Source: Gammaproteobacteria bacterium
GTDB taxonomy: Bacteria; Pseudomonadota; Gammaproteobacteria; Eutrophobiales; Eutrophobiaceae
Assembly (NCBI GenBank): GCA_965243205.1
Contig: CBDEUK010000002.1
Coordinates: 288,001-352,000 of the forward strand
DNA length: 64,000 bases
Direction: 5' to 3'
Part shown: piece by piece, positions 49,220 through 61,993 of the stretch
How positions within the stretch are numbered: position 1 is the first letter of the stretch
Layout: every line of letters starts with the position of its first letter
The notes under the pieces: generated by a model
Seen by the model: the letters and a program-made list of their open reading frames with translations, nothing else
Told to the model about the DNA's origin: nothing
Database searches by the model: none
Translations under genes and position numbers: made by a program

Positions 49220-51003
49220 ATATTAAATACGTGAGCATTTTGTTTGTCAGTGGGTAGCTCAACCGTATTATTAAAGTCATTGAAGCCAATCTGTGGTTTG
49301 ATCTGTAGAATTTTTTTCAAGTTAACTAAGTTAGCAGGTCTAAAGAAATAGAAGCCTTGATAAGCATCGCAATCGTATCGTACTAATACTTGTAACTCTT
49401 CTGTGGTTTCTAGACCTTCAGCAATGACTTTGAGTTTTAATTTTTTTGCAATCTCACAAACTGATTTAATAATCGTAGCTTTAACATCATCTAGATGAAC
49501 ATCTTGAATGAACGCACGATCAAGTTTCACAATATCAATAGGTAATTTCATTAGATAACTTAAAGAAGAATAACCACTGCCAAAATCATCTAAGGCGATT
49601 TTAACACCTAATTTTTTGATATCATTAATTTTATCAATCGCAGTTTCTATATCGCCTACAAATATATTCTCAGTAATTTCTATCAATAAATGTTTAGGAT
49701 CAATTTTTTTACTGAGAATATTTTCTTTAAGGTGTGTTTCAAAATTGGTGTGCCAAAATTGATTGGGGCTTACATTTACTGATAAATATTGAATTCGATC
49801 ATCACAGATAACATTTTCTTGCTGCCATATAGACAATTGTTCGCAAGCTTTTTCAATTACATATTCGCCTAACTGTTGTAATAAACCTGTGCTTTCAGCG
49901 ATAGGAATGAATTCGGTAGGAGGGATATTACCTTTTGTTAAATGCTCCCATCTTAATAATGATTCAAAAGCAATAATGTTTCTATCTTTATTAACAATAG
50001 GTTGAAAATGCAAATCTAATTCTTTGTTGTTAAGTGCATAAATCAAATCTTTTTCTAAGTTTAACCAATGCTTATTTTTTTTGCGCATTTGTTCATCAAA
50101 ACTTTGAATATTATTTTGACCACTGCTTTTTGAATGTGTAAGTGCAATGTCAGCAAAATTTAATATTTTTTGTGCTTTGAAATCTTGTTCAGGTAATAAG
50201 CAAATACCTGAGCTAGAACTTATTTTAATCACCATCTCATCTATATTGTATGGTGCTCCAATAATATCTCTTATTTTAGTAGCAATTTTTTTTGCGTTTT
50301 TTAATGCGGCTTCTTTATCTTGATTAAGTCCAGAAATAATACAAACAAATTCATCGGCACTTATCCTGGCAAGATAATCTTCTTTGCGAACAACTTTTTT
50401 TAAACGATTAGCTACAAGCTCTAATAATTTGTCACCTGTTTCAAAACTGTATTGATTATTTATAAATTTGAAACGATCAATATTAACGATAATCAAGCAA
50501 CTGTAACTTTTATTACGTTTAGAATTAATAATATGTTTGTTTACTATTTCTTCTAAATTTTTACGATTTGGTATTTGAGTTAATGTATCGATTAGAGCTT
50601 GTTGAGAAAGCTCATTGATCGTATCTTGGTTATCCGTAATTGATTCTATACGACTATGAAAGGCAATAATATTTTCTGAATCATCAAACTCTGGCGTAAT
50701 TGTATCTTTGACTAATAATTCATCACCATTTTTTTGTTTTAGACGATATTCAATTTCAAGAAATTGTATTTGTTTCGAACTTAATTCCAACAATCTATCT
50801 TGAAATTCAATTAAATCATCAATACTGATTAAATCGATATAACTTTTATTTTCAGCAATTAATTCGTCACTAACATATCCTAATAATTCATTAATATTTG
50901 GCGACACAAAACTTATCGGTAATCCTGATTGATTTAATCTGGATACCAATAATATATTTCCGTTTTTAAAAAATCGGTCAGAAATCTCTTCAAGATTAGT
51001 CAA
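49216..51003 (-). CDS. PAS-GGDEF-EAL protein, probably a c-di-GMP phosphodiesterase
   Basis: Degenerate SADEF; ESLLRW, EITE, DDFGSGYSSL, AEG.E. Confidence 0.9.
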   Translation of the reverse strand: MTNLEEISDRFFKNGNILLVSRLNQSGLPISFVSPNINELLGYVSDELIAENKSYIDLISIDDLIEFQDRLLELSSKQIQFLEIEYRLKQKNGDELLVKDTITPEFDDSENIIAFHSRIESITDNQDTINELSQQALIDTLTQIPNRKNLEEIVNKHIINSKRNKSYSCLIIVNIDRFKFINNQYSFETGDKLLELVANRLKKVVRKEDYLARISADEFVCIISGLNQDKEAALKNAKKIATKIRDIIGAPYNIDEMVIKISSSSGICLLPEQDFKAQKILNFADIALTHSKSSGQNNIQSFDEQMRKKNKHWLNLEKDLIYALNNKELDLHFQPIVNKDRNIIAFESLLRWEHLTKGNIPPTEFIPIAESTGLLQQLGEYVIEKACEQLSIWQQENVICDDRIQYLSVNVSPNQFWHTNFETHLKENILSKKIDPKHLLIEITENIFVGDIETAIDKINDIKKLGVKIALDDFGSGYSSLSYLMKLPIDIVKLDRAFIQDVHLDDVKATIIKSVCEIAKKLKLKVIAEGLETTEELQVLVRYDCDAYQGFYFFRPANLVNLKKILQIKPQIGFNDFNNTVELPTDKQNAHVFNI

Positions 51004-51096
51004 TTTGTAGCTCAGAAGTTATTACTAAAAATATTTTTTCTCTAAAGTTTATCGGCAAAAAATCTCAATAATTAAGCTAATAATGCCATATTATTA

Positions 51097-51124
51097 TTAT
51101 CGCATAATGTATATTATGTTAAAT
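51097..51124 (+). other. dif: Chromosomal dif site (XerCD) = prophage attL
   Basis: TTATCGCATAA-TGTATA-TTATGTTAAAT; spacer and XerD arm identical to the E. coli dif. Confidence 0.95.
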
Positions 51125-51235
51125 TAATTATGTCATTGATTTTTATGTACTACTTATGGGTAATTGTAAAAACAACCCCTTTTCCGTCTAATTGTTTAGT
51201 ACGCCTGCGATAATTACAAAAAGAAGGAATTACTA

Positions 51236-51604
51236 ATGACCAGCATTATTGAGGACGCGGCATGGTACGCAGACGACAAATATTTTTATTGGGATAGCAA
51301 TTATAACCTTGAAACCATCCCCGAATTGGTGGCAAAACACCCCAAAACGATAAAACGATGGCATGAAAACAACGCTTGGCCTCTCTGGGCGAAGCGATTG
51401 ATTGCATCATACAGTGGTTATTATTTGCACCCCGGCTGGCATGGATGGCGGCTCAATCCAAGAGATTTCAAACTGTACCCGCCCGGGTTACGACATGGGT
51501 TCACAGCGCCAGAAATTGAAGGACTGGATTTTATCCGGCAAAACTTGGGGAATATTCGGCACTCTGAAATGAAGCCGAAGCAATACGAATTATTGTTTAC
51601 TTAG
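51236..51604 (+). CDS. HTH + DUF3653 protein (XafT-like Xer activation factor candidate)
   Basis: HTH-like TIPELVAKHPKTIKRW; WHGWRL...LYPPG...FTAPEI DUF3653-like motif; next to att; RBS AAGGA. Confidence 0.65.
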   Translation: MTSIIEDAAWYADDKYFYWDSNYNLETIPELVAKHPKTIKRWHENNAWPLWAKRLIASYSGYYLHPGWHGWRLNPRDFKLYPPGLRHGFTAPEIEGLDFIRQNLGNIRHSEMKPKQYELLFT

Positions 51605-52001
51605 GTTTAGTATTTACAACGTCGTTCTTTTTTATATGTAGATAAACTCTGTCACCAAACAAAAAGAAAAACGCGCTAGAGCCTATATTTAAAGTACTTT
51701 GAGCGTGTGGTGAGTTCATAACAACAAGTACAAACGCCATCAGTAAAATTAAAAATGTGGCGATGTAACGAGACGACTCGCGTAAATCAGTGACCCATTG
51801 CGATGCCTTGCCCGACGGTTTGTCGATGTCGGCTAAGGCTTTTAATCGCTCGGTTTCCGCATTCATTAACTGAATCGTTTCTTCAACGTTTTGCGGACGA
51901 CCACCGGCTGAGCCTGTGACCTTAGCAACTACACCTCTTATAGTATCGACAACAGCAGGAACTAAACTTGGTAAAACAGTTGTTGCTAATATTTCAATCA
52001 T
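51597..52001 (-). CDS. Holin-like protein (3TM/GTA holin-like)
   Basis: WVTDLRESSRYIATF then TM segments, FFFLFGDR, basic C-terminus. Confidence 0.65.
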   Translation of the reverse strand: MIEILATTVLPSLVPAVVDTIRGVVAKVTGSAGGRPQNVEETIQLMNAETERLKALADIDKPSGKASQWVTDLRESSRYIATFLILLMAFVLVVMNSPHAQSTLNIGSSAFFFLFGDRVYLHIKKNDVVNTKPK

Positions 52002-52194
52002 GATTTGAGCCTGTATTTATAGGGTTTTCTTGCGTTAGTTCACTTTCTAAATTAATCACACGTTTGGTTAACTTACTGACTTTATCTGCTACGTCATTGA
52101 TGCGTTGTTCATTGCGATAGATAAGATAAATAATCAACGCCGATGAAAAGTCACCACCAGCCGATAACAGTTTCAATAATTCATCTAAGGGCAT
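51994..52194 (-). CDS. Small TM + coiled-coil protein (holin-like)
   Basis: SALIIYLIY hydrophobic stretch then heptads; overlaps both neighbours. Confidence 0.55.
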   Translation of the reverse strand: MPLDELLKLLSAGGDFSSALIIYLIYRNEQRINDVADKVSKLTKRVINLESELTQENPINTGSNHD

Positions 52195-52535
52195 GTTGTA
52201 CAGCGAACCGAACCATCAAGACCGAACAACGGGTCATCAGGACAACGACAGCCTCGGTCAATCACAATTTCAAAGCTACCCGGCGCACCGCCGCCATCTT
52301 TACCGCCAACACTCGCAATGCCAAAATCTTTAAAAAAATCATCGAATACACTGCCACTAGTAAAACCATCACCATCAGCCCCGACGAACGTACTACTTGC
52401 ATCACTCGGTGAAACACTGCCGAAAGATCCCAAATTTAGCCCAGATAAGGACTTCCCGGACTTCCACCACCACAACAGGCCGCCAATCACGATGCCTGAC
52501 AAGATCATTTTTTTCGTATTAGAATCGTTTTTCAT
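52185..52535 (-). CDS. Phage membrane protein with Cys-rich C-terminus
   Basis: TM MILSGIVIGGLLWWW; GCRCP...CTTCP; ATGA coupling to upstream gene. Confidence 0.65.
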   Translation of the reverse strand: MKNDSNTKKMILSGIVIGGLLWWWKSGKSLSGLNLGSFGSVSPSDASSTFVGADGDGFTSGSVFDDFFKDFGIASVGGKDGGGAPGSFEIVIDRGCRCPDDPLFGLDGSVRCTTCP

Positions 52536-53251
52536 GCCCTACCCGCTACTTGGTCTATAAAACCCCAATCAATGGCCGCATAAAACTGACCGCCGCCCGG
52601 TTGATTACGTCCCATCCAGTTCGCAACACGACCGCCCTTTCGTGGCCGTCCATCAATGTGCATACCGGGGCGCGGTTTCCAGTCGGGATACACACCGATA
52701 CCACCAATCGCCGACACTTCAACGGCTGCGTTGTACGCTTCGCGCAAACTACTCTCAGGAAATATATCAATCGCATCGGACAAACGACCGACCGCATAAT
52801 GACGTGAATTTTTCGAACCGGTTAATCGAAACAATGCACCGGGCGCGGGTGAAATTCGAATCGGTTTACCTAAGCGATGCCGCATATCATCCAACGCATG
52901 AATGATGCGCGGGTCAATGTGTTTTAGATTTTCATTACCGCCAAATTCAGCCGGCGTGAAATATCGAATCTTGTCCCAATCAACGGATTGAGTTTGGTCA
53001 ACGATGGGGAATTCATTTACAGTTTCCAATTCAGCCTCCCGATTGCCTGCGGTATTCGATACAGTGGGAAAAGTAAAAACGGTGTCACTGTCGAACGAAC
53101 CAAGTTTGAAAAAATCCAAAAAATCATCGTCCAGAAATCCACCATCAAGAAGACCATCCGCGAGTGGATTAGATTTGCCTTGAGCCTGTCGAGCATAAAG
53201 AACACCTCCGACAATCGTCGCGGCCGCTAAAAGTTTACCCGCCCGACTCAT
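52532..53251 (-). CDS. Membrane-anchored peptidase M15 (muralytic/endolysin)
   Basis: N-terminal TM; YFTPAEF, LDDMR..LGKPIRIS, SRH-x6-DAIDI, GIGVY, MHIDGR. Confidence 0.8.
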   Translation of the reverse strand: MSRAGKLLAAATIVGGVLYARQAQGKSNPLADGLLDGGFLDDDFLDFFKLGSFDSDTVFTFPTVSNTAGNREAELETVNEFPIVDQTQSVDWDKIRYFTPAEFGGNENLKHIDPRIIHALDDMRHRLGKPIRISPAPGALFRLTGSKNSRHYAVGRLSDAIDIFPESSLREAYNAAVEVSAIGGIGVYPDWKPRPGMHIDGRPRKGGRVANWMGRNQPGGGQFYAAIDWGFIDQVAGRA

Positions 53252-53600
53252 TGTTCAATGATGCTATGTAATCGTTTAACTGCTGATGAAATTGAGCCTC
53301 GGTAATTTCTTTGTTACCGAGTTTTTTATTCAAGTCATCCGATTTAATCCGTATCTTTTCAGCATTCGCCAGTCGCAACGTTTCTTGTTCTTGCTTCTGT
53401 TGAGCTGTCATAAAAATTAAATCATCGTCGGTCACGTTATCGTTTAAGAACGTGCAACAGGTTTTAAAATCGGCTAATACATCGTTCATTGCCTGCTCAA
53501 AATTCTTTCCACCTGTCGCTAGCATTTGCAGATAAACCAAACCTTGAAGCTTGCGCGCACGCGACGATGTATTACTCGGATTAGTTCCAAACTGTTTCAT
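53235..53600 (-). CDS. Phage hypothetical protein
   Basis: ATG at 53600 with GAGG RBS just after the upstream stop; helical/coiled-coil. Confidence 0.65.
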   Translation of the reverse strand: MKQFGTNPSNTSSRARKLQGLVYLQMLATGGKNFEQAMNDVLADFKTCCTFLNDNVTDDDLIFMTAQQKQEQETLRLANAEKIRIKSDDLNKKLGNKEITEAQFHQQLNDYIASLNNESGG

Positions 53601-53602
53601 GA

Positions 53603-54277
53603 TTAAAGTACCTCGTAGATGAGTGAATAACGTCCCCAACTGGTATTCGTTTGGTTGTAATAAATCCCGTTTCCTGCAGGAACAATGAACATCGGCTCCT
53701 TGTGGTCATGACGACCGGCCGAGACCATCAACAACGTGCAGGCATTACCATCATCGAATCCCGCTGGCGTGGTGGCTTTGTACATAATTCGCATTAATGG
53801 CGAAATGGAGACCATATCGATAGAGTAAACTTTTATACCGTTGACATTCGTAGCTGGCGGCACGATGGTAAACATGCTGGTATTGTTGAGTGCGTTATGC
53901 GCCGAAAGGGTATTCGATAAATCAATATCGCTGCTAATTTTCAGTGGAAAATCTTCGTTCTGTTCCATTAACACCGCATCATCTCTAATGCGTGACTCGC
54001 CATTCACAGACCAAAACTCAATGGTTAATGTTTTACCTGGCTGCGCTTCATTGGCTAGCCATAGCTTGGTGGTCGGCCACTTCTCAAACCGACGACCGTT
54101 AAAAATATCAACCGGCACATTTTCAGTTGAATTAAATCGTAACGTTGCCTTAGCACCGGGCGATGATGAACGGATTCGTAACTCGTTACACTGAACGTTT
54201 AATTCAAACAGTGAACGCGCAACCGATAAATCAATATCGATTTTACGAATCGGTAATAAGTCGAATTTATTACTCAT
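53603..54277 (-). CDS. Putative vertex/spike protein B
   Basis: Beta-rich; paralogous to 54277-54999; TAATG coupling; position matches the PM2 spike region. Confidence 0.6.
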   Translation of the reverse strand: MSNKFDLLPIRKIDIDLSVARSLFELNVQCNELRIRSSSPGAKATLRFNSTENVPVDIFNGRRFEKWPTTKLWLANEAQPGKTLTIEFWSVNGESRIRDDAVLMEQNEDFPLKISSDIDLSNTLSAHNALNNTSMFTIVPPATNVNGIKVYSIDMVSISPLMRIMYKATTPAGFDDGNACTLLMVSAGRHDHKEPMFIVPAGNGIYYNQTNTSWGRYSLIYEVL

Positions 54278-54999
54278 TAGAGCACCTCATATTCCAACGC
54301 CACCCACGAGTTGGCATTGGCATTTTGTTGAACGTAAATACCCAAACCGGCAGGAATAATAATCACCCTTTCTAAATTTCCTGTTGTTCCACCCACGACC
54401 ATCATCAACGTGTGCGCCGCTGTATCGGTGTACGAACTCGGAGCAGAACTTTTCGCCATAAATCGCATCGATGCACTACTGGCCGCACTGGCTAACAAGA
54501 CCTTAATGCCATTCACATTTGTTGCTGGTGGCACGATGGTTTGTAAGTTGTTGTTAACAAGTTCGAAAAAATATTGACTCACCATCGTCGGCGGTGTTGG
54601 TGGGTCAGTAATACCTTGAATTTGCGGGTCTACGGGAAACTCTATATTTACAGGGTCAGCGTCATCGATTTTCACTAAGCCAACAATCTGAGCGACCAAC
54701 GCATCGTCTTCGATTTGCGTATCACCGACAGCCGTCCAGTATTCAATCGTTAATTCCGCGCCTGCTTGAGCATCGTTATCAATAAAAATTTTTCTAGTGG
54801 GCCAATTGGTAAACCGTCGCCCGTTAAAAATATCAATCGGTTTGTTTTGTGTTTGATTGAATCGAATTTTCGCTAAGGCATTCGCGCTGTTGGACGACAC
54901 ACGTATTTGATTACAGCTAAAAGTCAGCTCTTCTAAATTACGAGCGACTGATAAATCGAGTGATATTTTACGAACGGGCAACCCGTCAAAGTTGCTCAT
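54277..54999 (-). CDS. Putative vertex/spike protein A
   Basis: Beta-rich N-domain, Pro-rich linker (DPPTPPT), beta C-domain. Confidence 0.6.
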   Translation of the reverse strand: MSNFDGLPVRKISLDLSVARNLEELTFSCNQIRVSSNSANALAKIRFNQTQNKPIDIFNGRRFTNWPTRKIFIDNDAQAGAELTIEYWTAVGDTQIEDDALVAQIVGLVKIDDADPVNIEFPVDPQIQGITDPPTPPTMVSQYFFELVNNNLQTIVPPATNVNGIKVLLASAASSASMRFMAKSSAPSSYTDTAAHTLMMVVGGTTGNLERVIIIPAGLGIYVQQNANANSWVALEYEVL

Positions 55000-55454
55000 T
55001 TCTTACGGCCCTTTTTACGGTTAAACCAAAAGTACGCCATCGCACCGAGACCCAGTTGAACTTCGGGCTTTGATAAATTATCAGCGAGTTTTCGGAACGT
55101 CTCTTGACCTGACTCAACGATTTCACCGACCGTTGTTGTGAGTGCAGCAGTAGCCCCACTCGTTCGAGCAAAGTCCTGTGATACCTGTTCAAGTGCATCG
55201 CCGGCCGGCTCTAGAATTTGTTGTATATCCTCGCCCTGTAACCCTTGATTGGTAATTTCAAACGTTAAATCCGAATCGGGTGAGCCTGAGACTTTAATCG
55301 CGGTCGCGCTCGGTTTGTCGGCAACGACTGACCCTTCCGAGGTGTCATTAATCGTTCGTGTGTTCGTGGTGCTGTTACTGGACGACGAGGATTTCGAACC
55401 GCCACCGCGATACCCTGCAAACGGTAATAGTTTATTTTGAATTCGAGTAATCAT
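54996..55454 (-). CDS. Phage membrane-associated structural protein
   Basis: GGGSKSSSSSNSTT N-terminus; C-terminal TM plus RKKGRKK. Confidence 0.65.
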   Translation of the reverse strand: MITRIQNKLLPFAGYRGGGSKSSSSSNSTTNTRTINDTSEGSVVADKPSATAIKVSGSPDSDLTFEITNQGLQGEDIQQILEPAGDALEQVSQDFARTSGATAALTTTVGEIVESGQETFRKLADNLSKPEVQLGLGAMAYFWFNRKKGRKK

Positions 55455-55891
55455 CGTTTATCTATCTGTTTAAGCATCACCAATTCACCCGGGACAAATC
55501 CATTTTCCAAATAGGTTTTAATCAGGCCCGGTCGCTTCACATGAGCGCGAACTCTGCTACACCCTTTTATCTGCCCGATTTCTTCAAGCAACGGTAAAAA
55601 CTCCATCATGAAACGCAACTCGCCAAAGTTACCGCCTACGGCGACAACAACACATTCCAGTCCGTCATATCTCAGTACGCAGCAACCGAAATCCGTCTCG
55701 CCATCCGTTGCGTGGTATAACTCACAATGACCGTTCATGACATCTCGCGCGCAATCTTCAATGCCGTAAATTTCATCCCACTCAACCGGCTCACACCATT
55801 GTCGAGCGGTGTAATTCCATTGGGTTTTTACGAGCTTGAGCGCCTTTTTTTCAGTAGTGTTTTCGCTATCATGTACCCGCCTATCAGCCAT
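55451..55891 (-). CDS. GNAT-fold-like phage protein
   Basis: VVVAVGG, GCSRVRAHVKRPGLIKTYLENGF resembles a GNAT C-terminal motif. Confidence 0.5.
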   Translation of the reverse strand: MADRRVHDSENTTEKKALKLVKTQWNYTARQWCEPVEWDEIYGIEDCARDVMNGHCELYHATDGETDFGCCVLRYDGLECVVVAVGGNFGELRFMMEFLPLLEEIGQIKGCSRVRAHVKRPGLIKTYLENGFVPGELVMLKQIDKR

Positions 55892-56094
55892 AGTGCCTGC
55901 TCCGTAAATCGTTCTTTAAATGGCTCTCTTGTAGCCCCAATCGTCACATTGACCGAGGACGTATTCCCTTCAGATAACGCGGTCGATGGCGCAGCATCAC
56001 CGCCCAAAATACCTTCGAATGGACTTTTTCCATCGCCAACAAACGGCACGCCCGAGCCACCTGACACCCCGGACAACGCACTAAAAAAACCCAT
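55828..56094 (-). CDS. Small phage membrane protein
   Basis: G/S-rich, C-terminal ALWLIGGYMIA plus KKRR; TAATG coupling. Confidence 0.65.
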   Translation of the reverse strand: MGFFSALSGVSGGSGVPFVGDGKSPFEGILGGDAAPSTALSEGNTSSVNVTIGATREPFKERFTEQALWLIGGYMIAKTLLKKRRSSS

Positions 56095-56252
56095 TAATCA
56101 AATACCTCGTTCACCAACATGCCGGCCGCAAAACCGACAGCGGCTAATAAATACGGCTGGTCAGTAACGGCGGCTTTGGCTTTTTCAACCGTTCCGCGTG
56201 ACTGAAAACCGGTGTAAAGACTGGCTGCGCCGACAATTAGTAACAGCGGCAT
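56094..56252 (-). CDS. 52-aa membrane protein (not in ORF track)
   Basis: MPLLLIVGAASLYTGF...YLLAAVGFAAGMLVNEVFD; TGATG and TAATG overlaps at both ends. Confidence 0.75.
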   Translation of the reverse strand: MPLLLIVGAASLYTGFQSRGTVEKAKAAVTDQPYLLAAVGFAAGMLVNEVFD

Positions 56253-56530
56253 CAATCGTCATCCATCACCATCAAAAACAAGAACGCGACCGCTCCATAG
56301 AGCAATGCATCGTTGTTTGAATTGGTGGTTTGTTGTGGGGCTGACTGAGTGACAAAAACCGTTTCCGGCCCCGGTGCGTGCAACGTGTCAAACGGTTGCG
56401 GCGCGCCGAGTTTTTCACGGATTTTAAACCCTAAGCCCTCGGTTACTGCTGGCTTGATACCTTCCAGTACATCACCAAACCAGCCCGAGACTCCCGGGCC
56501 AGTTGGTACGAATGAATCGAACGCGTTCAT
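56252..56530 (-). CDS. PM2 P3-like membrane protein
   Basis: Directly after the capsid gene; C-terminal TM ALLYGAVAFLFLMVM; GAGG RBS. Confidence 0.65.
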   Translation of the reverse strand: MNAFDSFVPTGPGVSGWFGDVLEGIKPAVTEGLGFKIREKLGAPQPFDTLHAPGPETVFVTQSAPQQTTNSNNDALLYGAVAFLFLMVMDDD

Positions 56531-56566
56531 AACATTACCTCGCTAATTAACGTATTTTGGTAATGA

Positions 56567-57544
56567 TTAAATACGGTCTGAAGAACCGCCGATAATCTCT
56601 TGTACGATAATCTCCGCTTGGTGATTCGCGCCGCCGTTCACATCCATGAACAGGTCGTATGCTGCGACCTCGGATAACTCGTGACCATGACCCGGCATCG
56701 AGCGCGGTGCTAAATCGATGAAGTACACACCCGTCCGAGGCGTTGCGATTTCATGGTTCATTGAATAACGAGCCTGATTCATTGCGCCCGTTTCCTTGAA
56801 TCGGACTTCTGAATCGGTCTCAACAATCAAGCTGTTGATGATGTCGTTCGCACGAACACCGTTGTCACGAGCAATGACCATTGCCGACATCACCATGCGA
56901 TTTTCGCCTGACAATAAGTCGACTTTTAATCGGTCATTGGTGTTGTTGATGTTGACTAAAATGGTACGTTCACGATGCAACGCGTAGTTGTTTTGTAAAC
57001 TGTTATTACGCACTAAGTCATGACTCATGACTTCAATGGTCGGCTCGACAGTCCAACTTAAAACAGTTGTTCCCGCTGGCGTTACTAAGTCGCTCGCATC
57101 GCCCCAATCCACGTTTAGAGTAAAACTGGTTACTCCGCCCTCGCGTGTCGCATCAAGCAATGTTGCATCTTGAGCGGCTCCGGCTTCAGGCATCCACAAC
57201 GGGATAGAGAAATACGCCTCAAATGGACGGTCACCTGTCGCAGTTCCCGGCGCGACGTTGTACGGCACAACACGGCCGCGACGAATATTTAATTCTTTGA
57301 GCGCCTTACCCGATAACGTTTTGACTGGTACGTTACCGTTGACCATGATTTCTAAATTTTTAATCAAGCTGAACGGCGCGTCTTCCAATACTGCGGTTGC
57401 CGCCGCCGTACCGATATTTAACGTACCTGATAATCGACAGTGAATTTCACGATACACGCGACCTTCATGCAGATTGATAAAACCCTGTGCATTTTGAGCG
57501 TAATTCAAAATGTCTTGAGAACGACGATAAGCAGTAATACCCAT
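56567..57544 (-). CDS. Double jelly-roll major capsid protein (PM2 P2-like)
   Basis: INLHEGRVYREIHCRLSG, LIKNLEIMVNG, YFIDL, QAEIIV align with PM2 P2 segments as recalled; all-beta; follows the ATPase. Confidence 0.8.
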   Translation of the reverse strand: MGITAYRRSQDILNYAQNAQGFINLHEGRVYREIHCRLSGTLNIGTAAATAVLEDAPFSLIKNLEIMVNGNVPVKTLSGKALKELNIRRGRVVPYNVAPGTATGDRPFEAYFSIPLWMPEAGAAQDATLLDATREGGVTSFTLNVDWGDASDLVTPAGTTVLSWTVEPTIEVMSHDLVRNNSLQNNYALHRERTILVNINNTNDRLKVDLLSGENRMVMSAMVIARDNGVRANDIINSLIVETDSEVRFKETGAMNQARYSMNHEIATPRTGVYFIDLAPRSMPGHGHELSEVAAYDLFMDVNGGANHQAEIIVQEIIGGSSDRI

Positions 57545-57569
57545 GATAAACCCTCTAAAAGTTAATAAT

Positions 57570-57593
57570 AAAAAACCGGGTAGGAACCCGGTT
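57570..57593 (-). terminator. Terminator-like hairpin just upstream of the capsid RBS
   Basis: Minus strand AACCGGG-TTCCTA-CCCGGTT-TTTTATT. Confidence 0.55.
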
Positions 57594-57599
57594 CATTCA

Positions 57600-57719
57600 C
57601 TAGCCGTTAACAATGCGGCGCAGTGGTGGCACTCGATTGATGATTGCTAATGTGATGGCAGTCATTACAACGCCGTTAACGATTTGATTAGCAGTCGGCA
57701 ATTTCACACTTGTAGCCAT
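57600..57719 (-). CDS. 39-aa membrane protein, PM2 P7-like by position (not in ORF track)
   Basis: MATSVKLPTANQIVNGVVMTAITLAIINRVPPLRRIVNG; GGGAG RBS. Confidence 0.75.
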   Translation of the reverse strand: MATSVKLPTANQIVNGVVMTAITLAIINRVPPLRRIVNG

Positions 57720-57815
57720 GAGTCGGTCTCCCGTTCGTTAAAAAAAATTACACGGCAATCATGGTCGTTACATAACCTCATTCAAGTGCTATTACGTATA
57801 CGTAAAAAGAAATTT

Positions 57816-58454
57816 TTACGGGCCTTTTAATTCGGCTTTTTGCATGCCATCGCCAAAGAAAAAGTACTGGTACGGCTGTAGTTCAACCAACTCTTTTGCC
57901 GTAACACCGGGCAAGGTTTTCGCGATGCGATTGGCATCCTCTTCGTACGTAAGACCGAATGACGTTATGTGCGATGCGTTCGATAAAAAGGTTTTATCAA
58001 CACCCGTCGGACGCTGTGATGTCCCCATGATAATCAAGCCATGTTGACGGCCAGTTGATACTAACTTTTCCCATTCAGGAATGGCGTAACCCGGCTCACT
58101 TACCATCTGAATTTCTTCAACGACACACATCAATGGGCCGCCATGTTTAGCGACTTCGTACGCGGTATCGCAAAAGACACCGAATTGCATTAAACGATGT
58201 TTTTGGCTGGCTTGGTTCGGGCGAAAGGCTTTACTGAACGGCTTGTCATACACGCTCGTTAAGTGACTGACCAATTTATCGCAACTGTCCGTCGAATCTA
58301 AATCGAACTCATGTTTGAAATCCCACACCATCAACCGAGTCGGCTTTAGTTCAGCGATGTCGTTTAATAGTTTGGTGGTTTTACCCATGCCGGTGCGACC
58401 GAAGTACGCCCGGACATTGGCTTTATGGATGTTATTATTTACGTTTACTTGCAT
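57816..58454 (-). CDS. FtsK-HerA/A32-like genome packaging ATPase (PM2 P9-like)
   Basis: Walker A GRTGMGKT, Walker B CVVEE, GRQHG, SQRPTGVDK; ATG 58454 with GGAG RBS preferred over 58562. Confidence 0.88.
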   Translation of the reverse strand: MQVNVNNNIHKANVRAYFGRTGMGKTTKLLNDIAELKPTRLMVWDFKHEFDLDSTDSCDKLVSHLTSVYDKPFSKAFRPNQASQKHRLMQFGVFCDTAYEVAKHGGPLMCVVEEIQMVSEPGYAIPEWEKLVSTGRQHGLIIMGTSQRPTGVDKTFLSNASHITSFGLTYEEDANRIAKTLPGVTAKELVELQPYQYFFFGDGMQKAELKGP

Positions 58455-59091
58455 GTGTACTTTTCTCCGCTTCCGCCCATGATGGTGCGTTAATCTCCGC
58501 CTCTTTGAATGCGGCTGGTTTTTCAGATTGTTGACTGGAATTGCTCTCGACTGGCTGACCATCTTCAGGCCATAGCACGGTTACTGTTGCTAGTAACAGT
58601 GGCCCAAAAAATAACGCGGCCGACATTTCATCGGATACTTTGCTGAGTGATTGAGCACTGTTACCGAATAAGGCTTTGAAATACGGCTTTTCCATGATGG
58701 GCGCTAATTTACTCGCACCCTCTTGGATGATGTCCGGCGTATAGATAGCCGCCATTTGTGGGTACTGCATCGACAGCGCAGCCACGACCGTTTCTATCAA
58801 TACCTTTGCGGCTTTACGGTTTTCTTCGAGTGCATCCTCTGGCGTGATGACCGTACCTTCAAGACCCGGTACACCACCGCCCTCTTGATTCGATTCAACC
58901 TGTGCCGCTCTCGCTTTTAAGTTTGCGAACGGGTCAGCGGTTCCACCATGTCCCGGTTCGGTCGAGCTCTGACTCGTCGTTTGGTTCTGGCTCTGGTTCT
59001 GGGTCTGACTCTGGCTCTGTTGGCTCGACCGGGTCGAGGTTTTCTTCTTCGATTTCTTCTTCGTGACTTTCGTCTGGGTCTGGTTTTCCAT
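58435..59091 (-). CDS. Phage protein with low-complexity N-terminus and a TM near the C-terminus
   Basis: 218-aa ORF filling the gap before the ATPase; TM AALFFGPLLLATVTVLW; start uncertain. Confidence 0.65.
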   Translation of the reverse strand: MENQTQTKVTKKKSKKKTSTRSSQQSQSQTQNQSQNQTTSQSSTEPGHGGTADPFANLKARAAQVESNQEGGGVPGLEGTVITPEDALEENRKAAKVLIETVVAALSMQYPQMAAIYTPDIIQEGASKLAPIMEKPYFKALFGNSAQSLSKVSDEMSAALFFGPLLLATVTVLWPEDGQPVESNSSQQSEKPAAFKEAEINAPSWAEAEKSTHASKRK

Positions 59092-59275
59092 CGTCTATAG
59101 GTCTCATACGTTGTCGGATTAATTGGTCGGATTTATTGGAACGGGCGAAGTGCTGAGAGCCACACGCGCCGCATGTATACGTGGCCCACTTACGTTTTGA
59201 CGATTGCTTTACGATGCATTCCGCGCCACAGTTAGGGCAATCGATTCGCCCGATGACATTCGTCGGCTCAGTCAT
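58934..59275 (-). CDS. Zinc-ribbon protein, putative late transcription activator
   Basis: CPNCG...CGACG; GAGG RBS; acidic tail; position like PM2 P14. Confidence 0.65.
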   Translation of the reverse strand: MTEPTNVIGRIDCPNCGAECIVKQSSKRKWATYTCGACGSQHFARSNKSDQLIRQRMRPIDDGKPDPDESHEEEIEEENLDPVEPTEPESDPEPEPEPNDESELDRTGTWWNR

Positions 59276-59426
59276 TTTTAAGCACCTCTCTGAGTAGTAT
59301 TACCAGCTCCAACATCAACGGAATCGCACGTTGTTGAGCAAACAACATGCGGGAACCTACCGATTCATTGGCTTTGGTTAATTCGGCTTGAATAGCCTGT
59401 AATTGTTGGTCGATATCAGGGTTCAA
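59268..59426 (-). CDS. 52-aa helical protein (not in ORF track)
   Basis: GGAGG RBS, TTG start overlapping the Rep stop; [21 protein letters not shown]...LLREVLKND. Confidence 0.65.
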
Positions 59427-61027
59427 AGTGTTACCTCCGGCGGGGGTTGTGATAATTCGTGAAAATTTACGGGGGTAGCGGGTAATTCCCGCGTACAGTT
59501 ATTGACAGGACTCCAAGGGGCGTTTTGTTTTGAATCTCGTACAACACGCCACTCATGGAGTCTGGTTAAGATCACGTCAATGTTATCGGTCACGCCGTAA
59601 ACGATGTCACCTATCGGCTCACCATAACGACCCGGTTCGTCCGACCATGATTTACATACGTGAATTTTCAGATTTTTACGTTGTGTAACAGGGCCACCTT
59701 GTGCACGTACGTAATCAGCCCAGTTACCCACATCAGCGGCATAGCGTACGCGTTCAATCGATTCGGAATCGACTTCGTTACGTAAACGACGAAGTTCACG
59801 CCACACCCCAACAGGTGGGCCGCCGATTTGCTGGAACTGTCGTATACCCCACGCACTCGCCCACGCTCGGACGAGTGCAGCGGCTTTTATGTCAGCATCT
59901 TCGAGGCCTTCCCCGTCGATGTTCTTTGAAATGTACTTTGCAATGTAGGCGGTCGCCGACCCTTTGGACGGGTCGATTTCCTCAATTTTTAATCGGTGCT
60001 CTTTGGCCCCGGGTTCGTTTGGGGTGTCCTTAATGGCATGATGGAATAGAACGTCTTGAACGTCGGCACGTTGTTCATTAGGCATGAATAGCAACATATG
60101 CCAGTGGGGGCAGCCATCGTGATGCGGCTCAGCGATTCTAAATCCGAAAACTGGTAAGCCTTGACGATGTAACTTTGCTCGGACTCGCGACCACACACCG
60201 CACAGATATTGCTGTGAGTCTCGTGGTGTTGCGCCGTTGTAGTTCGGGTTTTCATTTCCTGTTTTCGATAGCCTTGCATGAAACCGTGACGGACACGTTA
60301 ACGTATAAAAATCGGCAACGTATCCCATGTCATTCGCTATTGTTTCAAACCCAGATAATCGACACATCAATTCGTTACGTCTTAGTGCCGGGTTCGATAC
60401 TGATAGCTCCTGCAACTCTGACAACGTGTATTCCTGACCGCTGTCATTGATTGCTATCATAGACTCTAAAAACGCTTTATTCCTTTGTATCGCTAATTGA
60501 ACTCGCTCAACTGTGCCATGACTCACATACTTGCTAGCCTTACAATGCACCATGCCGTTATCAATCGCGGCCGACTCTTGCCGTCTGGTTAAATCTTTTC
60601 GTAACTTACGTGTCCACCAATCAATGCATCGAAGCCGCGCCAATCTCGCATCCATTGGCAGGGTATCGCGAGGCGGTTGAATACCTGAACGCAACGCCAC
60701 CTGTTCACAGCTGCTAATATCATTACCGTACAACTTCACGCGCCCCACTCTATCGACAGCGAACGCACGCACGTCATCGTCCTTTGAATCAAGCCCTAAA
60801 CGGTCGCTTGCATAATTCGTTTCAATGTCTAAGAGGTAATGATTCGCTTTTTGTGACGAGACACTTTCATGTATTTTTTTATACGTTCCAGCGATAACAT
60901 CGCGTAAATCATCGGCTAATTTTGTGAAGATACGTCGACGAAATAACTTGTTGTCACGACCGACCCTATCATCTGGAAAACCCGCAAATATTAGCGGGTC
61001 ATCGATTAACAGCTCGGCTCTAGCCAT
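59423..61027 (-). CDS. P2 gpA-like rolling-circle replication endonuclease (HUH)
   Basis: [34 protein letters not shown] (two Tyr), [24 protein letters not shown]. Confidence 0.95.
59495..59522 (-). other. Putative rolling-circle nick origin inside rep
   Basis: CGCCCCTTG^GAGTCCTGTCAATAACTGT resembles the P2 ori (CTCG^GAGTCCTGTCAA) as recalled. Confidence 0.65.
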
Positions 61028-61176
61028 ACGACTTCATCGCCTTCAACTTCGGTAATTTCCAATTCATCGGCATTCACATCACAAAGAAAATGCTCAACGA
61101 TTAACGGTGAATCGAGCCGCTCAGGACACAAGTCAATGACTCGGTCGAGGGCCGACCTAAACTCACGCAACGTCAT
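61006..61176 (-). CDS. 56-aa acidic hypothetical protein (not in ORF track)
   Basis: [21 protein letters not shown]...WLEPSC; GAGG upstream; overlaps both neighbours. Confidence 0.55.
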
Positions 61177-61357
61177 CCATCACCTCGAACACCTCGTCCA
61201 CTCGCTCAACTGTCATGCGATGGTAGTTACCTTGGATACCGAATAAAGTGGGTTGAAATACGACTATGGAAATGGGTTTGATATGGTCTCGGATACCGAC
61301 AATCATCGCCGTCATTAACGGCTCTGTTCGGCCCTTCAATCGTGTGCCTACGTGCAT
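61163..61357 (-). CDS. Phage hypothetical protein, first gene of the leftward operon
   Basis: GAGGA RBS; 64 aa. Confidence 0.6.
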   Translation of the reverse strand: MHVGTRLKGRTEPLMTAMIVGIRDHIKPISIVVFQPTLFGIQGNYHRMTVERVDEVFEVMDDVA

Positions 61358-61443
61358 CGAAATTTCCTCATATTGATTAATTTTTTATCGGAACTCGAAA
61401 CAAGGAGGAGGCCCGAGAGCTAATCGGGCCAAAAATTTCGATG

Positions 61444-61507
61444 TTCCAGCAATACCAGATAAGCGGAGATTTTGGGGAATCAGCACAACATCTAGTGGTT
61501 GCTGGAA
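61444..61507 (-). ncRNA. Putative antisense leader hairpin targeting the repressor RBS
   Basis: TTCCAGCAA/TTGCTGGAA-closed hairpin with a CCCCAA loop; contains TTGTGCTGATTCCCC, complementary to 61602-61616. Confidence 0.55.
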
Positions 61508-61511
61508 AAAC

Positions 61512-61540
61512 AGAATAGCTAAGTCACGCTTAACTAGCAA
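61512..61540 (-). promoter_or_regulatory. Leftward (lytic) sigma70 promoter
   Basis: TTGCTA-N17-TATTCT; overlapped by the palindrome CAAGTC-T-GACTTG (61538-61550). Confidence 0.6.
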
Positions 61541-61615
61541 GTCTGACTTGAACTTCAATTGCTTACAAACATCAATTACACTTGACTATAACAACAATTA
61601 AGGGGAATCAGCACA

Positions 61616-61993
61616 ATGAACACAATTGAAACATTGGACGCCATAAGTCGTTGTAATAACAACTGTACTGACTACAGAATTGCAAAAATGATGGGTGTTT
61701 CCACCTCTAGGGTCTCTAACTGGCGAAATGGCAAGAATTCTATGGATGATGAAGCCCGAATCGCCGCCGCAAAGTTACTAAACCAAGACCCAGAAACACA
61801 ACTAGTTTATGGACAGATGGAACGGACAAAATGTCCAGAGGTGAAGTCCGCATGGATGAATTTAATCGAACGTTCAAAGGTCGCCGGTTTCATTCTAGCC
61901 CTATTTTTAACCTTTGGAATGACATTCACTAATTTTGAAGGTGCAACGGTTGCAGCAGCAGAAAGCGCGAACGGTGTATATTATGTTAAATAA
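61616..61993 (+). CDS. HTH repressor (DUF3693/inovirus-type) with TM tail, ending inside attR
   Basis: TDYRIAKMMGVSTSRVSNWRNG HTH; ER..CPEVKSAW; TM VAGFILALFLTFGMTF; divergent from rep. Confidence 0.85.
   Translation: MNTIETLDAISRCNNNCTDYRIAKMMGVSTSRVSNWRNGKNSMDDEARIAAAKLLNQDPETQLVYGQMERTKCPEVKSAWMNLIERSKVAGFILALFLTFGMTFTNFEGATVAAAESANGVYYVK
61964..61991 (+). other. attR: dif-like site with a degenerate XerC arm
   Basis: AGCGCGAACGG-TGTATA-TTATGTTAAAT. Confidence 0.9.

Follow-up and report, generated by a model that had tools for sequence, protein, structure and literature searches.

The window analysed here is a stretch of 64,000 nt from contig CBDEUK010000002.1 (assembly GCA_965243205.1, positions 288,001 to 352,000), which belongs to a gammaproteobacterium of the family Eutrophobiaceae. 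There is a 17-nt sequence, TGTATATTATGTTAAAT, which is present in exactly two copies in the window (51108-51124 and 61975-61991, both on the + strand) and has no third copy elsewhere in the 2.79-Mb genome. At least two matches of this sequence were found in none of 100 dinucleotide shuffles. The repeats, the GC content and the ORFs delimit a prophage of 10,867 bp (51125-61991, counted with one copy of the 17-bp core), which has a GC content of 45-50% in comparison with 33-39% in the surrounding host DNA. The two core repeats are identical and all of the prophage ORFs look intact.

The left-hand repeat is part of attL (51097-51124, + strand). We identify attL as a regenerated canonical 28-bp dif site on the basis of the exact repeat, its conservation and the switch in GC skew. 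It consists of the host XerC arm (51097-51107), the central region (51108-51113) and the XerD arm (51114-51124). Many genomes of this family and this class have the stretch from 51100 or 51101 to 51127 at 96-100% identity, with one site per match, whereas the dif table of PMC2731167 lists no identical site. The GC skew is positive up to approximately 50 kb and negative beyond this point. Such a change of sign is expected for a terminus, suggesting that attL is located at the canonical dif site and replication terminus.

The right-hand repeat is part of attR (61964-61991, + strand), a hybrid site that lies within codons 117-125 of the repressor gene and the first base of its stop codon. Here the central region (61975-61980) and the XerD arm (61981-61991) are preceded by a degenerate phage XerC-side arm (61964-61974), in which 3 of 11 bases, compared by eye, are identical to those of the host arm. 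We infer that attP, with a perfect central region and XerD arm and a degenerate XerC-side arm, is of the 'left-armed' type described by Ma and Zhang (2025; PMC12715192). This 17-bp left-armed attP and the attP of PM2 are alike at 15 of 17 bases (also compared by eye).

The gene at 56567-57544 (- strand) encodes a protein of 325 aa which, as modelled with AlphaFold2 and compared using Foldseek, is a double-jelly-roll (DJR) major capsid protein (MCP). The model was built on an alignment of relatives and has a pLDDT of 87.1. Its matches in the PDB include the STIV MCP (4e-22), PRD1 P3 (5e-21) and PM2 P2 (9e-18). A word-indexed protein search gave 10 relatives, several of them from contigs of 9.7-11.5 kb, and one relative (29% identical) matches Pfam P2_N (PM2 coat protein) above the cut-off. 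By tblastn the MCP has zero matches in a phage collection of 50,697 phage records. A putative packaging ATPase of 248 aa is encoded at 57816-58562 (- strand; phrog_2666, 7e-22). The gene at 59423-61027 (- strand) encodes a P2 gpA-type rolling-circle replication initiator (Rep) of 534 aa (Pfam Phage_GPA, 1.8e-88) and is transcribed divergently from the repressor gene. According to the ORF list, no ORF in the prophage other than those of Rep and the MCP is longer than 250 aa, and there is no recombinase family among the Pfam hits of the 20 prophage ORFs that were scanned. Taken together, these sequence data support the view that a tailless icosahedral DJR virus, Vinavirales-like and of the XerCD/dif type, is present here as a prophage, with a predicted role for XerCD.

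Some further ORFs of the prophage may be mentioned here. Two adjacent paralogous ORFs of 224 and 240 aa (53603-54277 and 54277-54999, - strand) have N- and C-terminal sequence in common. Both are without a Pfam match and may encode vertex or spike proteins of the virion. Between Rep and the ATPase region there is an ORF of 113 aa (58934-59275, - strand) with an N-terminal zinc-ribbon (a weak Pfam match) and a strongly acidic, Pro/Glu-rich tail. A Vibrio inovirus prophage (PQ189335.1, locus L019, 8493-11533) has a gpA-type Rep, two small ORFs and a divergent repressor gene that extends up to the border of the element. The order of Rep and repressor is alike in this record and in the window, suggesting that the whole replication-lysogeny block, beyond the repressor, is common to filamentous and DJR elements.

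The dif regions of other genomes also contain features of this kind. In a genome of the same genus (G001), the DNA on both sides of dif is different from that in the window and the right flank is unmatched. The canonical dif site of this genome adjoins an ORF of 81 aa with a weak HTH match (contig C10, locus L015, 2030-2333), and approximately 1.4 kb of unrelated small ORFs separates dif from a conserved EAL/GGDEF gene. This region may be the remnant of another dif-integrated element. One genome of the same class (G033) has two repressor homologues approximately 11 kb apart on contig C3 (119132-119398, L028, and 130057-130335, L023) and a third on another contig, and these may mark a tandem array of dif-integrated elements.

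The terminal genes in the integrated and circular forms

The right terminal gene of the prophage (61616-61993, + strand) encodes a P16/RstR/ORF13-type repressor of 125 aa. The product matches phrog_638, annotated as 'transcriptional regulator' (5e-19), and has a weak match to HTH_3. It is arranged as an N-terminal HTH, a hydrophobic segment at approximately residues 89-107, a linker and five residues encoded by the dif core. The stop codon of the prophage form (TAA, 61991-61993) is made up of the last T of the repeat and two flanking host bases. When 61616-61991 was joined in silico to the sequence from 51125 onward, the result was an ORF of 154 aa with its stop at 51211-51213. The continuation of the repressor frame (51124-51213, + strand; the tail) is 29 codons long. 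The conserved body of the protein, comprising the HTH, the hydrophobic segment and the linker, is identical in the integrated and joined forms.

The prophage form of the repressor would be the one of 125 aa, ending at the TAA made by the junction, and the episomal form would be of 154 aa. Because the ORF runs through attP, it follows directly from the sequence that a XerCD crossover at the 17-bp core would necessarily swap everything past codon 125.

These results bear out much of what the initial annotation of this DNA had read from the sequence. The integrated repressor of 125 aa with a TAA at the host junction was confirmed, and our in-script join of attR to attL gave the identical tail of 29 aa, to a total of 154 aa. 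The repeat at 61975-61991 is within the repressor ORF, so the gene of an HTH repressor contains attP in its 3' end, as had been claimed. The DJR capsid model and the dif repeats agree with its description of a tailless icosahedral virus of the XerCD/dif type. A promoter that it had placed at 61512-61540, however, was not found by a consensus scan.

The left terminal gene (51236-51604, + strand) encodes a product of 122 aa. A match to PM2 gp a and the position of the gene suggest that it is a probable, if weakly matched, P15/XafT-like (DUF3653-type) regulator. In a single comparison the product is 27% identical to PM2 gp a over 83 aa (E 8e-4). PM2 gp a is annotated as DUF3653 and matches the NCBIfam VC1465-family Xer recombination activation factor (XafT) at 1.9e-7, which is under the cut-off of that family. 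The product of 51236-51604 has no Pfam or NCBIfam match of its own, and in the word-indexed protein search it was itself the sole match. The position of the gene fits the terminal gene pair described for related elements (PMC12715192).

In the circular form the ATG at 51236 is 22 nt past the stop of the extended repressor ORF and on the same strand. A simple consensus scan of the + strand from 50950 to 51700 gave no promoter-like site, and the host gene to the left of attL is on the opposite strand. Integration would put the repressor gene and the P15/XafT-like gene at opposite ends of the element, the latter behind host DNA. Since the two genes are head-to-tail in the circle and at opposite termini in the prophage, and a promoter-like site is missing before 51236, it is probable that the XafT-like gene loses its coupling to the repressor promoter upon integration. 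We regard this separation, albeit deduced from a weak annotation and a simple scan, as a more robust regulatory consequence of integration than the change of the tail.

Read-through of the dif-like site in the repressor family

A HMMER search against 1.84 billion representatives gave 1432 relatives of the repressor at E<=1e-3. The survey set comprised the best 150 of these 1432, minus 7 that are longer than 200 aa, which leaves 143. Of the 143 relatives examined, 102 have the first hydrophobic segment at a 17-residue Kyte-Doolittle (KD) value of at least 1.6, and 125 have it at a value of at least 1.3. There is a dif-derived peptide after residue 85 in 106 of the 143, and it occurs in three frames and both orientations: the forward frames give VYYVK-like, CILC-like and LYIM-like forms, and the reverse orientation gives IHYA-like and YTLC-like ones. 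The motif patterns were set after viewing the sequences and the controls were clean: within the first 85 residues the motif occurs in 2 of 143, and shuffling of the C-terminal parts gave 4.1 on average and 10 at most. Stricter patterns were found in 69 of the 143, with controls of 0 (N-terminal) and 0.15 (shuffles). In the DNA of eight homologues the motif peptides are encoded by dif-like sites. As judged from the 143 sequences examined, read-through of attP is the rule within the repressor family.

By eye, most family members (window 61880-61990; P0019-P0165) have an Ala/Pro/Ser-rich linker of approximately 20-30 residues between the hydrophobic segment and the dif-derived motif, often with Ala-x-Ala-like runs. 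The hydrophobic segment and linker resemble a signal-anchor that may contain a signal-peptidase site, cleavage at which would release a C-terminal piece outside the cytoplasm.

The tails past the motif differ in length. Among the 106 examined, 22 are of 3 aa or less, 17 are of 4-16 aa and 67 are of at least 17 aa. There are 13 strict CILC cases, and 7 of them end at a TAA inside the XerD arm. A frame that ends there would give a product that is unable to change upon integration. The 67 long tails include 17 that are hydrophobic and 29 with at least 20% R+K. Only 4 of 2211 pairs of tails are similar (E<=1e-3), in comparison with 2198 of 2211 pairs for the N-terminal 85 aa, and in comparison with the window tail a z>3 was reached by 0 of 68 tails, among them PM2 ORF b*.

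At the level of subfamilies some tails are alike. Strongly hydrophobic tails are present in relatives P0003, P0023, P0027 and P0109, the first three being 44-60% identical. P0038, P0049 and P0135 have a similar hydrophobic tail and att motifs in different frames or orientation. Vf33 and K04M1, with att motifs in different frames, also have tails that are alike. Likeness of tails across att frames suggests that they can be selected as peptides in particular lineages, and the sequences suggest that in some subfamilies att sites have been swapped and the downstream peptide kept in frame.

The repressor matched 82 of the 50,697 phage records by tblastn. Among those examined are inoviruses of Ralstonia (RSS-type), Vibrio and Xanthomonas, as well as some Burkholderia phages. 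The Vinavirales are represented by NO16-like phages and PQ189348, the last gene of which reaches the end of the record. In many prophage-derived records the 3' end of the repressor gene is the end of the record. In the circular homologues RSS20, fSU1, Vf33 and K04M1, the dif-like site is inside the ORF and the tails are basic or neutral, none of them being hydrophobic. PM2 gp c is a match of the window repressor (E 6e-6). Unlike in the window, P16 of the NO16-like phage and of PM2 is short (approximately 90 aa) and has no hydrophobic segment. The dif-like site of the NO16-like phage begins approximately 10 nt past the stop of the short P16, and that of PM2 falls within a small ORF of its own, b/b*, which is flanked by gp c (HTH) and gp a. 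At 663-773 of PM2 (L033, NC_000867.1) the annotated ORF b/b* spans the dif-like site, and ORF b, which starts at an ATG in the XerD arm, encodes a hydrophobic product of 30 aa.

Searches with the repressor and MCP alignments found no DNA of close relatives in viral contigs or in genome contigs, and the metagenome contigs that match the repressor alignment provided two short, distant loci. When 400 genomes of the class were scored, G000 being one of them, 3 others had a repressor homologue and no other had the window MCP.

Explanations for the tail

The maximum KD value over 19 residues is 1.75 for the tail and 1.75 for the first hydrophobic segment. At 31.5% GC, the DNA encoding the tail is below both the repressor body (43.5%) and the next ORF (45.8%). 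The tail is contained in the spacer between the attP repeat and the ATG at 51236, which is 111 nt long and approximately 30% GC. In 5000 dinucleotide shuffles of this spacer the frame was open for at least 28 codons in 474, and both open and hydrophobic (17-residue KD of at least 1.6) in 73. Of 720 AT-rich 111-nt pieces taken from host DNA in the window, 139 were open and 18 were open and hydrophobic. The tail is nominally uncommon (approximately 1.5-2.5%), yet it was noticed post hoc for that very look, and we regard it as mildly unusual. There is no ssrA-like motif at its end.

The explanation that best fits the data is that the element carries a published module, which would combine a P16/RstR-type repressor with a dif-like attP of 17 bp ('XerD-arm plus central region') and a P15/XafT-like gene. 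The repressor is here of the long inovirus type that bears a hydrophobic segment (as in phiRSS0 ORF13), and its ORF passes through attP. The tail of 29 residues is most likely lineage-specific read-through into an AT-rich spacer, and a conserved second transmembrane domain is improbable. As part of this explanation, we favour, with some reserve, the view that the tail is incidental or weakly selected.

The alternative that the initial annotation had put forward is that the two forms are functionally distinct. The tail of the episomal form of 154 aa would be a second membrane helix or would serve to destabilise or retarget the protein, and XerCD integration would remove it and so produce a stable immunity repressor of 125 aa. 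If true, integration-dependent immunity would here exist in a version that uses the host recombinase. The tail equals the first segment in hydropathy and a tail that is open and hydrophobic arose in merely 73 of the 5000 shuffles, but T- and A-rich spacer DNA tends towards translations rich in I, L, F, Y and M, and the tail is located in a spacer of 31.5% GC just before the next gene. Hydrophobic tails make up a somewhat larger part of the long tails in the family (17 of 67) than of the open shuffles (73 of 474), although 29 of the 67 are basic and not hydrophobic. Relatives P0003, P0023, P0027 and P0109 have hydrophobic tails and there is conservation of tails across att frames at the level of subfamilies; conservation across the family is absent (4 of 2211 pairs), and none of the 68 tails resembles that of the window. 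A functional difference has been proposed for phiRSS0 ORF13 (PMC3816273), and XacF1 ORF12 is described as stabilising integration (PMC5666396). On the other hand, a switch is impossible for members with a stop in the XerD arm (7 of the 13 strict CILC cases), the NO16-like phage and PM2 do not have their attP in the repressor ORF, and the window tail is without an ssrA-like C-terminus. We regard a switch between two functional forms as possible but doubtful.

With regard to the second transmembrane segment that had been proposed, the hydropathy stands, being equal to that of the first segment (1.75), and a functional second transmembrane helix is not supported. The idea of a functional switch between one-helix and two-helix forms is likewise not supported, as 4 of 2211 pairs of tails are similar and 0 of 68 resemble the window tail. 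Conservation of the extension in homologues had been suggested as a check, and the extension is not conserved.

The prophage could also be fixed or defective and never excise, in which case the 154 aa form would be nonexistent in this lineage. Four runs of one sample contain the stretch as assembled contigs, and there are no circle or empty-site joints in the contigs of two of these (X1 and X2), although such contigs cannot show rare junctions. Two runs under the same species label (X5 and X6) gave no match, even to the flanks. The XerC-side arm of attR is degenerate (3 of 11) and close relatives are absent from the 400 genomes of the class. Set against this are the ORFs, which all look intact, the identical core repeats, the spontaneous induction reported for NO16 (PMC9966536) and the excision validated for Cr39582 (PMC12715192), and we consider a fixed prophage to be very unlikely. 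Also very unlikely is a separate small hydrophobic peptide of 27 aa from the ATG at 51130, with an incidental in-frame fusion: this ATG is in frame, and PM2 has an ORF b/b* of 30/36 aa with a hydrophobic product over its dif-like site and between its HTH and DUF3653 genes, but the AT-only bases before 51130 are without a Shine-Dalgarno-like sequence (by eye), PM2 ORF b* is outside the eight best matches of the tail (the eighth having a z of 1.0) and PM2 ORF b is itself uncharacterised.

The family-wide read-through of attP itself calls for an account, and the one that we offer is speculation. An in-frame attP in the 3' end of the gene for a membrane-anchored repressor might be a selected family-wide device that couples Xer recombination to the expression or form of the repressor, which we think unlikely. 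Such a device could act in that integration alters the C-terminus of the repressor and hence its stability or topology. Alternatively, transcription, translation and membrane insertion through attP or attR could control the access of XerCD to the site. In the window phage a further effect of the device would be that the XafT-like gene loses its link to the repressor promoter.

Known systems and significance

In phiRSS0, attP is within ORF13 and integration by the host XerCD makes a new stop, which shortens the product from 156 to 130 aa (Yamada, 2013; PMC3816273). A functional difference between the two forms of ORF13 was proposed there with reference to unpublished work (PMC3816273). The window repressor is 30% identical to RSS20 ORF13 over 86% of the query by tblastn (E 1e-4). 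It is like ORF13 of phiRSS0 and RSS20 in having an HTH, a hydrophobic segment and a dif-like attP in its 3' end, and in becoming shorter upon integration (here in silico). However, phiRSS0 and RSS20 are filamentous ssDNA phages, whereas the window element is a virus with a DJR capsid. Additionally, the RSS tail is basic and Ala-rich and that of the window is hydrophobic, and the dif core and the reading frame differ too.

The Xanthomonas inovirus precedent to which the initial annotation had pointed is real. In XacF1, attP is inside the coding sequence of ORF12, which is split by XerCD integration (PMC4076744, PMC5666396), and this regulator is reported to promote and stabilise the integrated state (PMC5666396). 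The window element is like XacF1 ORF12 (and Cf) in that attP is inside the coding region of a putative regulator. XacF1 differs from the window element in being an inovirus, and the Xanthomonas homologue that was compared is that of phage fSU1 (25% identity).

According to Ma and Zhang (2025; PMC12715192), dif-type DJR phages have a lysogeny module in common with CTX-I inoviruses, which comprises P16/RstR, a dif-like attP and P15/XafT. In the integrated state rstR/p16 and xafT/p15 are the two terminal genes, and attP may be 17-bp and arm-specific. The same study provides 258 DJR prophages with curated borders and reports validated excision for phage Cr39582. Its main text places attP "between" p15 and p16 and contains neither 'truncat' nor 'stop codon'. 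NO16 ('Asemoviridae') is a dif-type DJR prophage with spontaneous induction (PMC9966536), and a few tailless prophages at Vibrio dif sites have been described (PMC11630473). The window element is like the dif-type DJR phages in its size (approximately 10-13 kb), in having no integrase, in its location at dif and in having the repressor gene as one terminus and a putative XafT-like gene as the other. In the literature searched, with the main text of PMC12715192 as part of it, we found no published description of an attP within an ORF in a DJR phage, and no published test of long versus short repressor forms. The novelty that might be claimed for the arrangement is weakened by phiRSS0 ORF13 (PMC3816273) and by the shared module (PMC12715192).

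Integration-dependent immunity has been described in mycobacteriophage BPs and its relatives (PMC4557955). The window element is like BPs in having attP inside the repressor gene. In the BPs-type phages, attP is reportedly located inside the repressor gene such that integration changes the C-terminus of the repressor. Their own tyrosine integrase is said to act at attP, and the long form is said to have a degradation tag. The long viral form reportedly is unstable or lacks activity, and immunity comes from the truncated prophage form, which is the active repressor. In contrast with BPs, the window element is at the host dif site, has no integrase and has a tail without an ssrA-like end. The attP of TLCphi is said to have no proper XerD arm, whereas the degenerate arm in the window attP is the XerC arm. 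TLCphi XafT is a Xer activation factor, a small DUF3653-type protein encoded beside attP in IMEX (PMC6744903, PMC9226527). This is a candidate role for the product of 51236-51604, to which the similarity is indirect and weak.

In summary, the element joins known kinds, being a dif-type DJR prophage with an ORF13-type repressor and an internal attP. An attP in the repressor gene, known in filamentous IMEX phages, is here extended to a tailless DJR virus, and the capsid lineage of this virus is without a relative in the phage collection searched. If the tail is merely incidental, the element is an ordinary instance of the described module. Read-through of attP would be a rule in a large repressor family (143 of the best 150 among 1432 relatives examined), beyond two plant-pathogen phages, and the dif-derived peptide near the C-terminus of the repressor provides an annotation handle for the borders of IMEX. 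The question raised is whether long and short forms, or the split between the repressor and the XafT-like gene, have a part in setting the lysogeny decision of phages that borrow XerCD. The generalisation most worth pursuing is that most of the family reads through a dif-like site, in any frame.
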